A stretch of 64,000 nt of DNA. Source: Octopus vulgaris (taxonomy: Eukaryota). The notes under the pieces were generated by a model. It searched no databases. It was not told where the DNA came from and worked only from the letters and a program-made list of their open reading frames with translations. Positions 4,091 to 60,200 of this stretch are shown here, in pieces (the stretch's first letter is position 1; every line of letters begins with the position of its first letter). The stretch spans positions 30,876,001 through 30,940,000 of the forward strand of contig OX597828.1 of NCBI GenBank assembly GCA_951406725.2. The letters run 5' to 3'. The translations under genes and the position numbers were made by a program.

Positions 4091-4732
4091 TTATTGGGAA
4101 ACGGACAATAAAACCAAGTCAGGACGAGTACCTCAGATCAAACAGAATATTCATTTAGAGTAAGATGCATCAAGAAAAGTAGAAAAAGAAGTAATTAATG
4201 CCTTACAGCTGTTTCTGGGATATCCCAGTCGATGGACCAACATCTCCATACACTGGCTTATTCCGTAATCAGAGACAAGGGGTATATGCAGGAACGTTCC
4301 GGACAGAATTTACAAAATATTAAAAGAACAATTCTAAGTAGAAGAATAAAGACACAAGAACACATTTCACAGCTCATTCTTTCTAGAGCATATCGAAGGT
4401 ATAGGCTGTTAAGTATAACTCCAGTGACATCCAGGCAATATTTTGAATGTTGCGTTCAGATTGAATAAATATAAATTTATTCTGCAGTCTTTATTTTTGT
4501 ATCCCTTGTTTTACTTTTTATACACTGTGATTTCTCAGTGTAGAACTTTCCTACATACACATGATTTCTTTGATGGCGAATTCCCAGTGTGCGTAGATAT
4601 TCACCGAGCACCTGGGTTATCTCAGAGACATCTGTAAGACATTAATTACTTCTACTTCTCCTTATTCAACTTACTCTTATTAAAAATTCTAAATTACCTC
4701 AGATACCCGTCCCTGCTTTGTTTCCCCTAATA
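4091..4732. mobile_element. Non-coding foldback PLE relic with a degenerate hammerhead in each inverted arm
   Basis: 4091-4276 is a diverged reverse complement of 4566-4732; HHR-like motifs at 4200-4276(-) (GTCT CTGATTA...GAAACAGCTGTA AGGC) and 4566-4640(+) (TTGATGG...GAGACATCTGTA AGAC). Confidence 0.7.
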
Positions 4733-6105
4733 TGTGTGTATATATATATATATGTGTGTGTATATATATATATGTGTGTATATAATGTATATATATAAAT
4801 ATATATATATACGTATATGTATATATATATATATATATATATATATATATATATATATGTATCCACATAATGCACATATACATATATATATATACATACA
4901 TACACACACACATACATGCAATCTATGTGGGTGTCTTTTCAATATACTGGCTAGTTTAAAATTAAAATGACACGTCATACGCCATGATGGATCTAAGGTT
5001 TTGGTAGAAGGGGATGTCAGAATATGTAGAAAGAGTAGACAGCCACAATATATATATATAGATATGGGTGTTCCGAATTGCTAAAAGTCATTCAAAGAAT
5101 ATCATTGTTTTCATTTTCAGTAAAAATATTGATTTTAGCTAAATTACATAAAGGCAATTTAACGAAGTGCTAAAATATTGAGAGTTCTTGAAATAGGAAC
5201 ACTATTTCAGGGATAAATATTCAATTGTCCACGCATATTTGTTTATCTGATTTTATTAGCGTGTTTTTTCTCTGCCTTTTGCCAGTGTGAACAATCTAGT
5301 AACATACCTACTTTTTCGAGAGTAATTTTTAATGAAAGTATTGCCGAAGGCTCGGAAGTTAAATTATAATGTGGAAGGGTGAAAATGTTGTGAAGAAATT
5401 TTGGATGAGATGAATATAAAGTGATAGAAGGAAAGAAACACCTTTTGAAACATGAATGACTGGTCGTTAAACAATTGACATTAGACCTACAATGATTTAT
5501 GTCATTCACCTGGTAATATATATCTAAATTATTTGTGAGTTATTATGAATCCGAGCCAAATACATTATAAAATCTCTATTACTATACCAGATCAACAACA
5601 TCAACCAGATTAGTAAAGAATTCTGCGTATTGTTGTGGCAGGTTCTGAGGTTATAAATCATCACCGTTCCATGTAGTAATCCAAAGTTGTTTATTCCATA
5701 TACTTTTTTCCGCCCTCTTTTTCTCTCCCTTCGTATGTATATATATCTATATACATATACATGTGTGTCCGCACACACACACACACACACACACACACAC
5801 ACACACACACACACACACACACACACACATACATATATATATATGTATATGTCTATATATATATATATATATATATATATATATATATATATATATATAT
5901 ATATTTATGTATTTCTATAATAACGAAAGCAGTTATACAAAATGGTAAAACGAAAACGAAAAACTTCAATTGTGACTAATTGTCAGTGAGGGCCCCGTTT
6001 ACATACATACATAAGTAAATACATATATAAATACATACATACACACATACACACACACACACACACACACACACACACATTTATATATATATATATATAT
6101 ATATA

Positions 6106-6432
6106 AGGCATTTGAGAGATAAAATATCTACCTCTTTTTGAAACCAAAGGTAGCCCTCTTAACTCAAAAATAATGGATATTCATGAACCATTGCGGTATC
6201 GAGCAATCATTCTCGCTGCTCGATATTACCGTGTAACGGCATGCGTAATGTTGGCGATTTCCACTTATTTTTCCTTCTTTGTCTTTTCACTTTCCTGTTT
6301 CCGACGAAGAGCTCTGCTCGAAACTTTAACCACTCTCTCCTTTCACCGAGCGTCGAATTAATATATTTCTTGTGCACGTCCTAACGTTGTTTTATTTTCT
6401 CTATTCTTTTAATTCTTTGATCTTTAAACTAC
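6106..6432 (+). mobile_element. PLE 3'-end relic with degenerate minimal hammerhead (6297-6330)
   Basis: GTTT CCGACGA A GAGC-TCT-GCTC GAAAC TTT AAC has an intact stem II and GAAAC but U4->C in the core; the segment sits between two (TA)n tracts. Confidence 0.55.
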
Positions 6433-56189: not shown

Positions 56190-57142
56190 CGGCCATCGGC
56201 AAAATGCTATGAAAAATGACCGTTATACAAAGGGAAATTACTGTGTTATTGACCGTTATTAAGACAAAAGAGCTATATATATATGTATAATTATATATAT
56301 ATTGATATATATCTATATATATATATCGTTATATAAATATATATATTGATATATGAATATATGTACATTGATACACACACAAATGTATATGTATAATTAT
56401 GTATATATATTGATATATACATGTTCGAATGACCGCTAAGTAAGGGAGTAAAGTAAGGGGGCAAAAGATTCATAGCATTTGCGTTAGCGCGCCTATTCTT
56501 ACCTACATATGTGCGCCCGCACACCCACATGCGTGCGCCTAAAACTATACATTCATCCACCCTCACCTGAACACGTACACATCCTCACTCTCATCATTCG
56601 TATATAGACGTATTTTACTCAGTGTTTTTAAACATTTTCCTGTATTTTTAACTTTGCCCTGTTCTTTCTTGTTATACGTATGTATAATCGTTTTTGTGAG
56701 TGCGTGTGTGTCTGCATGCATAAGGGTATGTGCGTATATAGACGTGGTTTACTCTTTGTATAGTTCCTTATCCGTTTCTTCTGTATTGTTACCCTTAAAC
56801 CTGTTTTTTCTTGTGTTTGTGCATATGTAGACGTGTGTATGAACCTTTATGGTGCGCGTGTGTGTGTGTGGGTTTGTATGTATATGCTACATATATATTT
56901 GGCGAAGGAAGGAAGTGAGGATGTTTTCAAGTGAGGGTAGATAGGTGTAGTATTTTAGGCGTACGCACATGGGTGTGCGGCGCACAAGTGTAGCTAAGAA
57001 CAGGCGCGTTGACGCAAATATGAACTTTTTACCCCCTTAATTAGCGGTCATTCGAATATCTCTTTTGTCTTAATAACAGTCAATCACACAGTAATTTCCC
57101 TTTGTATAACGGTCATTTGTCATAGCATTTTTGCAATGGCCG

Positions 57143-57203
57143 GATAACTGAAGTGATGGCGGCGTGGATTTCCACCGCGGCATCCGAAACTCGGAGTTTT
57201 ATC
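57143..57203 (+). ncRNA. Type I hammerhead (right arm, A9->U substitution)
   Basis: GATAA CTGAAGT GATG GCGGCGTGGATTTCCACCGCGG CATC C GAAA CTCGGAG TT TTATC. Confidence 0.65.
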
Positions 57204-60200
57204 ATGGCTACAGAATATATATATATATACCATTGTATACCTATCGATCTATCTGTCTATCAATACATCTAACGATGATCAATACATCTAACGATCTCTT
57301 TCTTTCTCTCACTCTCTCTCTCACTATATATATATATATACATTTGTATGTTTTATGTACGTATATATGTATATATGTGTCCGTGTGTGTATGTGTATGC
57401 ATATATATATATATATATATATATAGGTGTTTATATATAATATATGCATATATATTAGATACATAAATTCATATCTATCACATAAATCTGTGTATTTATT
57501 TGCAATCAACCTAGCTGGTTGGCTCTCTCTTCATGCACCTATCTATGAAATCTGCGTGTTTTCCCCTCAAATAATTGAAATGCCAATTACACGTTTCCTT
57601 TCTCTTGGAAATGAAATACTGAGCAAGACATATTCCATAATACCTCAGAAAATTCTTTTCCTTTGTTGTTCCTTAGCAGTAAACTAATATGGAAGTGAAC
57701 TTCATAATCCATGATATAGAAATTGGAATTATTTGTGCGCTGAAGGCATAGGAATTATTATTGACTGATTGGTTAATGGAAAATATATACTTTATTTAGA
57801 TCAGGTAGTGCATGATGAATAAATAGCTACGTAGATGAGAAAAGATGTCAGTTGGACAAAGAGCAATGAAATCACCCGATAAAAGCACCTAAGGAAAGGA
57901 CTTTCATTCAATACACGGCGTCGTTTTCCAGTGTAAGAAAATGGCCAATTTATAAAAGGTGAAATCAATTGAATCATTAACTACACGTAAACGTATTAAG
58001 TCATCTTGAACAAAACTAATGATTAGAAAGATGACATCTGACTTTAACAAATGAAGTTTGCGTAAATGTCAATACAGTAAATATATTGAAAATTCAGTTT
58101 CAAATGTAACGAGGATATTGAATGTAATATTGCAATGTACAGCGAATGTAACCATGCATGTACGTTCATTTACCTTCACTTTATTCTTGTTCTATGAAAT
58201 ATAAAATGTAATATAAGAATGGTTTCGTGGTGTACCATTTGGTATTAAAGATTCAGAGTGGACTGTAGTTAAATGAATATACCTTATTGTTTGAGAACGA
58301 ATACAGCAAGTCAGGAAACAGATGCCACTGTTCAAATGAAAGTTTCTATATAGGACAGTGCATAAATTGATGTCATGGAAGTTCACACTGTGGATAAATG
58401 TATATTTTATGAATACATAACCACAAAACATCTCCATGTATATATATATATATATATATATATATATATATATATATATATATATATATATATATACATG
58501 CATATCTATATGCATATATATATATATATACATATACATATATATTTACATATATACATGTATATACATATATATATATACATATATATACATGATATAT
58601 GTCTATATAAATATATATGCATATATATAAGTATATATATGTATATATATATAAGTATATATATATATATATATAAATGTATACATATATATATATGTAT
58701 GTATATATATATATATATATATATATATATATAAATGTATGTATGTGTATATATATGAATATATATATATATATATATATATATATATATATATATATAT
58801 ATATATATATTCGCCACAAAACTACGCAAACAAGCATACGAGGGGAAACAAGCGCGGCAACACATCTATAATATATGGATATTCCGACGGATGATATACG
58901 ATTTAATGCAATTCTTTTAATTCTTCTTTCAATAGCGATATAGATTGATCGGTCTTGCATGTACCATTTCTCAGAAGTCGGATTTTTTTTTTTCATGATG
59001 CATGAGCTATAGAAGCATTTTCTAAAATATAATAATATTAATGCAGTCAATCCCATTCTGAACTTTTTAAATCAATTGTAAACAATGTATTTTCGTTTCG
59101 GAATGATAGGTCTATTGAAAGTATATTTTACTTCGTTTGATTTTATTTAGTTTGCTCTAATGAATTATCCACATAAACTAAATATAGATTGAGATGTATA
59201 ATCTACTTGTATAATTTAACATATGTACTTGAAATTACTCTTACTATTTATAGATTTTTATTCTACTTAAATATTCATGCTCACCTATTCAGGATAATTC
59301 ATTTCTGAAGACTAGCTTCTGCATTTGTGGGTGTGTAAACATTGGTGTACATATCTGATGTTTGTTTCCGTACATGTAATGCACGAAAACCTGGTTTCTG
59401 GTTCAATGCACAAGGCAGCACAAGGATAGATTGGCCGAGTATATATTTTTTTCGAATGAAATAAGTGGAAACAATATGCTAAAACGTTGGTTAGTGGATA
59501 GCGGCCTTTCACTATTTACGAAAAAAGATGCAAGGATGTATCTGATTGCAACAACAATCATCCAAACCATGTCTTTGACCAGAAGTGACATTCCCCAGTG
59601 CACGTGCTGTATACAATGTGCATTTCTCTTGAAGCTGGATTGTGCTAAGAAAGACGGACGTGAAAGAAAAGAGACAAAACAGATTTCACTGACCCAATTT
59701 TTAGTTCTTTGTCTGTAGCTTATTTCTCCCACATTTTGAGGAAAATTGCATTTAAAACAAAAAGGAAAAAAATAGAAGAAAAAATTGATAATTTACATAA
59801 ATCACTGAAGAACATCTTTCGAAATTCGAACTCCATTATTTTTCTGCCTCAACGAAAACTTCACAATTAACTGTTGGAATAGTTACTTCTGATTTAAATC
59901 GTTATCTGTCAACTTAGATTAGTCACCATACCGTTTGATGAAATATTGTAATTACAACTTAAGAAGCCATCAACAATTTTCAACAGGCATTCACCGGGTA
60001 TCACACACACACAGACACAAACGCAGACACACATAAATATATATACATGTACGTGTGCACTAAATATTTTTTAACATCTGAAACTCGTGGAATTTAGTGC
60101 TACCATATTTGAGTATTTTTGACAGGCAGCAGTCGTAAATTTCACGAAGTATAAATTATAGAAAACGAAGAAACATTTCTTAGAATTGAAAAATTAGACA

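Follow-up and report, generated by a model that had tools for sequence, protein, structure and literature searches.

A stretch of 64,000 nucleotides from Octopus vulgaris (GenBank assembly GCA_951406725.2, contig OX597828.1, positions 30,876,001 to 30,940,000 of the forward strand; henceforth the window, numbered from its first letter) contains four foldback elements, E1 to E4, in which each inverted arm carries a type I hammerhead ribozyme, either intact or decayed. We conclude with considerable confidence that these are independent, dead, 5′-truncated insertions of different families of Penelope-like elements (PLEs), in which the hammerhead-bearing pseudo-long terminal repeat (pLTR) at the 3′ end was probably laid down twice, head to head. 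A first-pass annotation of the window had offered one-off truncation-inversion of PLEs as one of two explanations; it agrees with the features of E3 (a Hydra-type endonuclease, a tail and (TA)n on either flank), with the differing junctions within the E4 family and with the literature.

Foldback elements with outward-facing hammerheads

Self-BLAST and arm alignment demonstrated inverted arms at all four places where they had been proposed, with 74-97% identity between arms. They lie at ~4091-4408 and 4432-4732 in E1 (74% identity, ungapped), 29145-29236 and 29304-29395 in E2 (80%), 38374-38661 and 41694-41992 in E3 (97%), and 56119-~56600 and 56888-57213 in E4 (89%). The elements were said to lack mutual similarity, and indeed self-BLAST gave no cross-hits, while z exceeded 3 in only two of 62 cross-element arm comparisons, both marginal (3.1 and 3.2). 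Neither an open reading frame (ORF) nor a coding match was found in E1, E2 or E4, in keeping with the suggestion that three of the elements are non-coding. Several were also described as abutting (TA)n; this is true of E3 at either end and of E1 and E4 at their right ends, while E2 does not touch (TA)n.

Hammerheads were sought in three ways. In a descriptor scan of the window one core change was tolerated, and 20 shuffles served as control. A strict descriptor missed the motifs of E3 and E4 because stem II begins with a mismatch, and the descriptor was then relaxed; allowing three core changes gave 187 matches in the window, mostly noise, which were left uncounted. The scan found five type I hammerheads in the 64 kb, all within the arms of E2, E3 and E4, compared with 0-2 in the shuffles (mean 0.3, n = 20). 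A covariance model trained solely on 41 hammerheads from loci outside the window, the stems of which covary, placed the same five motifs at the top (E = 1.5e-6 to 0.09, the next candidate having 0.78), and none of 500 shuffles attained its score. Lastly, an either-arm test, in which the hammerhead core may be recovered from either arm of a foldback, gave the full core in all four elements; for E1, 7 of 500 shuffles match as well, and for E2, E3 and E4 none of 500 in each case. The hammerhead foldbacks in the window are thus real, and well above chance.

In all four elements the pLTR carries a sense hammerhead, intact or as a remnant, near the 3′ end of the element, and an inverted 5′-truncated copy adjoins the 5′ end head to head in each. 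The proposed orientation (minus strand on the left, plus strand on the right, and so facing outward) stands for E1 to E4, and the either-arm test gave no match to an inward-facing hammerhead in any of them. However, an intact core together with the cut site is present in just three of the eight motifs, E3 left, E3 right and E4 left, while E2 right and both arms of E1 are decayed motifs that are visible to the either-arm test only. We could not reproduce the first-pass count of at least ten hammerhead-like loci; we find five by both scans, three remnants and one probable remnant (at 48239-48866).

The window has 32.6% G+C and is dense in dispersed repeats, with 13,276 of its 64,000 bases masked as tandem repeats. 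No hammerhead family was present among the 150 of 377 Rfam matches listed for the window, nor in three sub-regions; the leading matches are microRNA (miRNA) models driven by microsatellites.

A truncated PLE in E3

The left arm of E3 is an inverted pLTR on the minus strand (38374-38661) with an intact hammerhead at 38390-38440. Between this arm and the (TA)n lies a one-sided extension of 67 nt (38307-38373, minus strand) that, judging from its position alone, is probably the PLE tail. The end of a 5′-truncated PLE ORF follows on the plus strand (38658-39263), beginning at the inversion junction, where the left arm ends on its inner side, and corresponding to the final ~200 residues of a PLE protein. 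The plus strand continues with a stretch rich in TG/TA microsatellite (39264-41693), which we read as the 3′ untranslated region (UTR), and with the sense pLTR arm (41694-41992), which has an intact hammerhead at 41926-41976 and terminates in (TA)n.

The ORF encodes a C-terminal GIY-YIG-type endonuclease of the PLE type. It contains the CxCX5C linker, and CxxC and CxH motifs around a conserved E and N. A HMMER search with a limit of E = 1e-10 gave 1,902 relatives, and the E3 protein matches a profile of 13 long relatives with E = 6.7e-60. A word-index protein search had produced no longer relatives of E3 among 126 candidates; it was the full HMMER search that found them. Pfam gave no match above cut-off for the E3 protein or for any of eight long relatives. 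Reverse transcriptase (RT) is not present in the truncated E3 copy. Five long relatives have the RT catalytic YRDD together with DKT and RW(R/K), the RT being recognized in them by motif only.

The marks of Hydra PLEs given in section 11 of PMC8557442 are the CxCX5C linker, CxxC, CxH, DKT, RW(R/K), a canonical hammerhead and insertion into (TA)n. By its motifs the E3 endonuclease belongs to the Hydra clade, and the (TA)n on both flanks is as expected for that clade. Taken together, the endonuclease, the one-sided tail and the (TA)n flanks therefore identify E3 as a PLE insertion. We note that there is a weak match to the PLE endonuclease profile elsewhere, at 20171-20461 (E = 1.6e-4); no inverted arm or hammerhead was found near it.

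Abundance and junctions of the E4 family

E4 consists of an inverted arm on the minus strand (56119-56600), with an intact hammerhead at 56129-56189, and a sense copy on the plus strand (56598-57217) made up of a non-coding 3′ region with internal repeat units followed by the pLTR arm, ending in (TA)n. The left arm alone contains an insert of 148 nt (56273-56420) that is TA-rich and located at a TA. The right hammerhead (57143-57203, plus strand) has one core change.

Contigs from four public sequencing runs (of four studies) were aligned to 55900-57240 at 82% likeness. Between 3,224 and 9,467 contigs aligned per run, most of them with 90-95% likeness. They run across the right-arm position that matches the insert, which is private to E4, and nearly all have the canonical base where the core of the E4 right arm is changed. 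The depth of the unique flank was 46, 49 and ~6 in three runs, while run X8 had no flank cover. In the three runs with flank cover the family depth at the 3′ end was ~1.8e4 times that of the single-copy flank, and it was 20- to 100-fold lower ~200 nt further inward; summed contig depth is not a copy number (a caveat of the tool) and divergence adds to the fall, so these values are taken as orders of magnitude. At position 56655 in the loop the depths were 0, 97, 8 and 4 in the four runs, i.e. 0-2 times the flank. The E4 family is very abundant. An extension of ~25 nt beyond both ends of E4 is common to all four runs, and E4 itself lacks this tail.

On the plus strand the left arm of E4 is antisense and the right arm is sense, so that a same-strand jump from left to right marks the inversion junction of another copy. 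Fifteen of 161 joints were listed, in an order that is not set by depth alone, and eight of these are of the left-to-right inversion type. Rows set aside were four on opposite strands (two antisense-oriented stretches joined, with no inversion), three inside the spacer, and two that are mirror views of one junction with 4 nt of microhomology, seen in run X1 only; two others were merged. This leaves five distinct junctions, with antisense/sense arms of 76/86, 77/73, 89/439, ~246/167 and 281/133 nt. Their depth in runs X1 and X4 is 32-80 compared with 46-49 for the flank, and so is close to that of a single locus, and four of the five were seen in more than one run. The junction of E4 itself, near 56598, is not among the five. 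Among the joints listed we find neither a shared junction nor a flat copy number for E4. The first-pass annotation had proposed that genomic copies with differing inversion breakpoints would be dead PLE truncations, and this is what the joints listed for the E4 family indicate. Its other option, amplifying foldback families with a fixed junction, finds no support in E4, where the junctions differ.

A short palindrome (57128-57141) just 5′ of hammerhead stem I is the site of two of the five junctions, a number too small to interpret. Other joints step back by 116-133 nt at 56625-56845, some with high depth, which suggests that the 3′ region of the E4 family contains repeat units of variable number.

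E1, E2 and smaller foldbacks

E1 (4091-4732, with no assigned strand) is an old, nearly symmetric foldback with a loop of ~24 nt and no coding match. It is likely to be a decayed PLE 3′ end plus its inverted copy. Both hammerhead remnants come from the either-arm test. That on the left (4196-4280, minus strand) has G8 changed, a long stem II and a palindromic stem III, and was missed by both the descriptor scan and the covariance model; that on the right (4562-4644, plus strand) has three core changes.

E2 (29145-29395, again with no assigned strand) is a 251-bp foldback with arms of 92 nt and a loop of 67 nt. On the left a minimal type I hammerhead (29168-29209, minus strand) with an intact core and G at the cut position was found in all three scans. 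The right remnant (29331-29372, plus strand) has three core changes and was recovered by the either-arm test. A Tc1/mariner-like copy at 29407-29599 abuts the right end of E2.

A probable fifth element of the same design, E6, lies at 48239-48866 (no assigned strand) and was absent from the four described previously. The either-arm test gave a hammerhead remnant in its right arm (~48718-48801), with six of 500 shuffles also matching. A 67-nt hairpin lies immediately to the left of E6 at 48150-48216. Two further foldbacks are a 292-bp one at 31519-31810, with 80% arms and a small loop, followed by (CT)n(TA)n, and a near-perfect 105-bp hairpin at 46578-46682, with 98% arms, a 5-nt loop and (TA)n on its left side. 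The former is possibly an older or shorter PLE stump, and the latter is perhaps a minimal PLE stump, or else a MITE (a miniature transposable element with inverted repeats). The either-arm test found no hammerhead in any of these last three.

Related PLE loci in metagenomes

A type I hammerhead with a perfect core is present in 57 of 79 metagenome loci of PLEs related to E3, mostly in the style of E3 and E4. Many of these share the mismatch at the base of stem II found in E3, and three Hydra-type loci share stem III of E4. Some form of inverted repeat occurs in 15 of the 79. Two of them, L019 and L035, have an inverted arm over the hammerhead beside a truncated ORF, as in the elements of the window; with the covariance model the inverted motif is recovered in L019, whereas L035 gives no match. 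The E4 pattern gave no matches in metagenome and viral contigs, and no Hydra-type protein was found among 600 candidates in viral contigs.

Two other arrangements were observed in these loci. In L061 (2266-2573) two different PLEs are arranged tail to tail. In L075 (2622-2962) two minus-strand hammerheads ~280 nt apart form a direct repeat, retrozyme-like, directly behind a PLE end.

Predicted state of the ribozymes

In the predicted folds of E1, E2 and E4 none of the 42-85 bases of the sense hammerhead pairs within the motif, while 35-64 of them (73-97%) pair with the opposite arm. The local fold of the E3 hammerhead is calculated at −7.6 kcal/mol, compared with −90 for the duplex with its antisense copy. 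As the hammerhead bases are expected to pair with the opposite arm, a read-through transcript is predicted to be plain duplex RNA, and the paired ribozymes are likely to do nothing within the hairpin. It had been suggested that the elements could generate self-cleaving or double-stranded RNA substrates in host transcripts. Self-cleavage is weakened by the predicted folds, while double-stranded RNA is plausible if the locus is transcribed; it would then be long duplex RNA, as formed by inverted repeats in general, in which the ribozyme is probably silent. The involvement of host transcripts is unsupported, there being no host exon among 66 ORFs of the window scanned with Pfam (the second batch taking 60 of the 83 listed), although short exons would escape detection. 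Whichever mechanism formed the arms, the ribozyme pair is a by-product of pLTR duplication.

Origin of the foldbacks

Given a PLE origin, the mechanism that we somewhat favour is twin priming. The PLE protein would nick both strands of an AT-rich target, each nick would prime cDNA synthesis on the 3′ region of the element RNA, and both cDNAs would stop early and have their ends joined. Twin priming would place a 3′ end at each border, allow the tail on either arm and create a new junction at every insertion. Frangieh et al. 2024 (PMC11167929) found that a PLE protein, when purified, nicks AT-rich DNA on both strands and extends each of them, that two RT start sites bound the tail and that hammerhead cleavage is dispensable for insertion. 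A literature search, mostly without subscription papers, found no statement that twin priming makes the inverted pLTR. A strong rival, to which we give a clearly smaller though substantial share of belief, is snap-back self-priming, in which a truncated cDNA or antisense template folds on a short palindrome and copies itself; the identity of the elements as PLEs would be the same. PMC3846280 put this forward on the basis of palindromes seen where inverted copies join. It is strong because several of the loops are tiny: small ones are present in E1 and in the foldbacks at 31519-31810 and 46578-46682, and the 76/86 and 77/73 junctions of the E4 family are the two at the palindromic site just 5′ of the hammerhead. 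However, in E3 it is the shorter arm that has the tail, and the longer arm lacks it, a pattern not expected from simple self-copying of one cDNA; snap-back would need later loss of the 67 nt or a second priming event. The priming of both strands in vitro also argues against it.

The other explanations concern the nature of the source. E4 (or E1 or E2) might derive from an ORF-less parasite of PLEs, resembling a short interspersed element (SINE) or a retrozyme, with the mirror arm formed afresh every time it inserts. The literature describes non-autonomous derivatives of PLEs as well as retrozymes, the last 150-190 nt of the E4 family are very highly abundant and its 3′ region has internal repeat units, yet the window contains no tandem hammerhead units, the 15 joints listed include none from tail to pLTR start, and strong 5′ truncation of an autonomous PLE would look alike, E3 demonstrating that UTRs can exceed 2 kb; we regard such a source as unlikely. 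Less probable still are non-autonomous foldback families, in which a preformed hairpin with a hammerhead at each end is transcribed and reinserted whole by PLE proteins. The lack of ORFs in E1, E2 and E4, the great abundance of the E4 end, an X8 contig that spans the E4 junction, and the fact that 146 of the 161 joints lie beyond those listed in a test of the E4 family alone could all be accommodated by this, but differing junctions near single-locus depth, a depth of 0-2 times the flank at 56655, the steep 5′-ward fall, the variation of the tail and a sense hammerhead predicted to be locked in the hairpin could not readily be. We accord a similarly low probability to a combination in which the E4 family, without an ORF of its own, parasitizes Hydra-type PLEs, has ends numbering in the order of ten thousand and includes a hidden subfamily spreading as a preformed hammerhead-capped hairpin; if true, editing or small-RNA pathways would be supplied with long double-stranded RNA substrates seeded in the genome. 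The least probable explanation, and one largely refuted for E3 and E4, is that these are MITEs, or palindromes arisen by chance in which words resembling a hammerhead occur accidentally. They are short non-coding inverted repeats beside TA, no Rfam hammerhead is among the matches listed, and local folds are no stabler than shuffles in nine of ten stretches. Against this, the shuffle controls, the model built from outside loci and the orientation all pick out the arms, E3 contains a PLE endonuclease, and ends of the E4 family differ by the tail.

Several observations weigh against our interpretation of the elements as independent truncated PLE insertions, or against twin priming as their mechanism. 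The junction evidence comes from the E4 family alone, in short contigs and from 15 of the 161 joints. A joint of depth 1,440 lies outside the 15, and a common junction may lie among the 146 others. Two of the five junctions have a short side of less than 30 letters. The X8 contig over the junction of E4 itself (310 nt long, with 22 differences and a depth of 4.4) may represent either a second copy or this locus as it occurs in a related organism. The depth of contigs does not measure copy number, and part of its inward fall reflects divergence. No ORF ties E1, E2 or E4 to an autonomous PLE, and an inverted hammerhead arm is present in only two of the 79 outside loci (contigs from short reads often break at repeats of this kind). 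Finally, small loops (4 and 10 nt in two junctions of the E4 family, and ~24 nt in E1) suit snap-back equally.

Other repeats in the window

At 2825-3320 and 29407-29599 the end of a Tc1/mariner-like element is inserted at TA, with a frameshifted transposase N-terminus identified by eye. The repeat shared by 2825-3018 and 29407-29599 has a hammerhead-like appearance; it was rejected as a candidate, with core A6 absent in both copies and a bordering Tc1/mariner-like transposase fragment (also by eye, with no Pfam match). Two abundant SINE-like families of dispersed repeats occur in both orientations, one at 1-575, 2077-2328, 29627-30049 and 47091-47309, and the other at 23338-23834, 30863-31250, 46156-46555, 53852-54226 and 60931-61254. 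A long minisatellite array of A/T tracts with a unit of ~37 bp occupies 33000-35100. It is followed by a zf-RVT match at 35225-35461 (E = 1.4e-5, just under the Pfam cut-off), probably a remnant of a long interspersed element, and then by a perfect 90-nt tandem duplication at 35488-35672.

Comparison with known systems

The elements resemble insertions of endonuclease-containing (EN+) PLEs (PMC8557442, Fig. 2; PMC3846280) in their 5′ truncation, head-to-head inverted 3′ copy, pLTR hammerhead, one-sided tail and AT-rich target. According to Craig et al. 2021 (PMC8557442) an inverted 5′-truncated copy makes inverted repeats around the unit, a 30-40-bp tail is present at either end and (TA)n is a target of insertion; Arkhipova et al. 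2013 (PMC3846280) describe head-to-head as the commonest arrangement, and propose self-priming. Inverted pLTRs are also listed as a curation feature in PMC8969392. Unlike the usual EN+ PLE insertions, E1, E2 and E4 are truncated within the non-coding end with no ORF left, and the tail of E3 is 67 nt rather than the usual 30-40. Within the Hydra clade (PMC8557442, section 11) E3 is matched by its C-terminal endonuclease, CxCX5C linker, CxxC, CxH, canonical hammerhead and (TA)n, but has a 2.4-kb microsatellite-rich 3′ region and no RT in the copy. PLE expansion has been reported in an octopus genome (PMC13282606), in text that does not mention hammerheads. Mollusc Hydra families that take in the elements of the window are perhaps listed in the supplementary files of PMC8557442.

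Dual minimal hammerheads of Schistosoma mansoni (Cervera and de la Pena 2014, PMC4209133) are similar in that two motifs lie ~100-700 bp apart on opposite strands, and were ascribed to probably truncated PLEs. That host and PLE clade are different, and the Results as available give one sentence on them, with no junctions mapped; the paper reports low hammerhead activity, with dimers required. Like animal non-LTR retrozymes (PMC7229834), the elements of the window are PLE-related, have a type I hammerhead and (except for E3) are non-coding. Retrozymes, however, are direct tandem units with circular RNA (PMC7229834; bioRxiv 10.64898/2026.07.22.740005), whereas the motifs here are inverted, single per strand and mostly decayed, and neither self-BLAST, the descriptor nor the covariance model found same-strand tandem motifs in the window.

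An inverted pair of this type can pass for a MITE or a miRNA hairpin, and plant miRNA models do give scores for E2. With about five such elements in a stretch of 64 kb and a young family of great abundance, this genome should offer thousands of junctions with which to separate twin priming from snap-back in the PLE mechanism. The layout is already described for PLEs, and most likely the elements are fossils of a known type of insertion rather than a new ribozyme-capped family.

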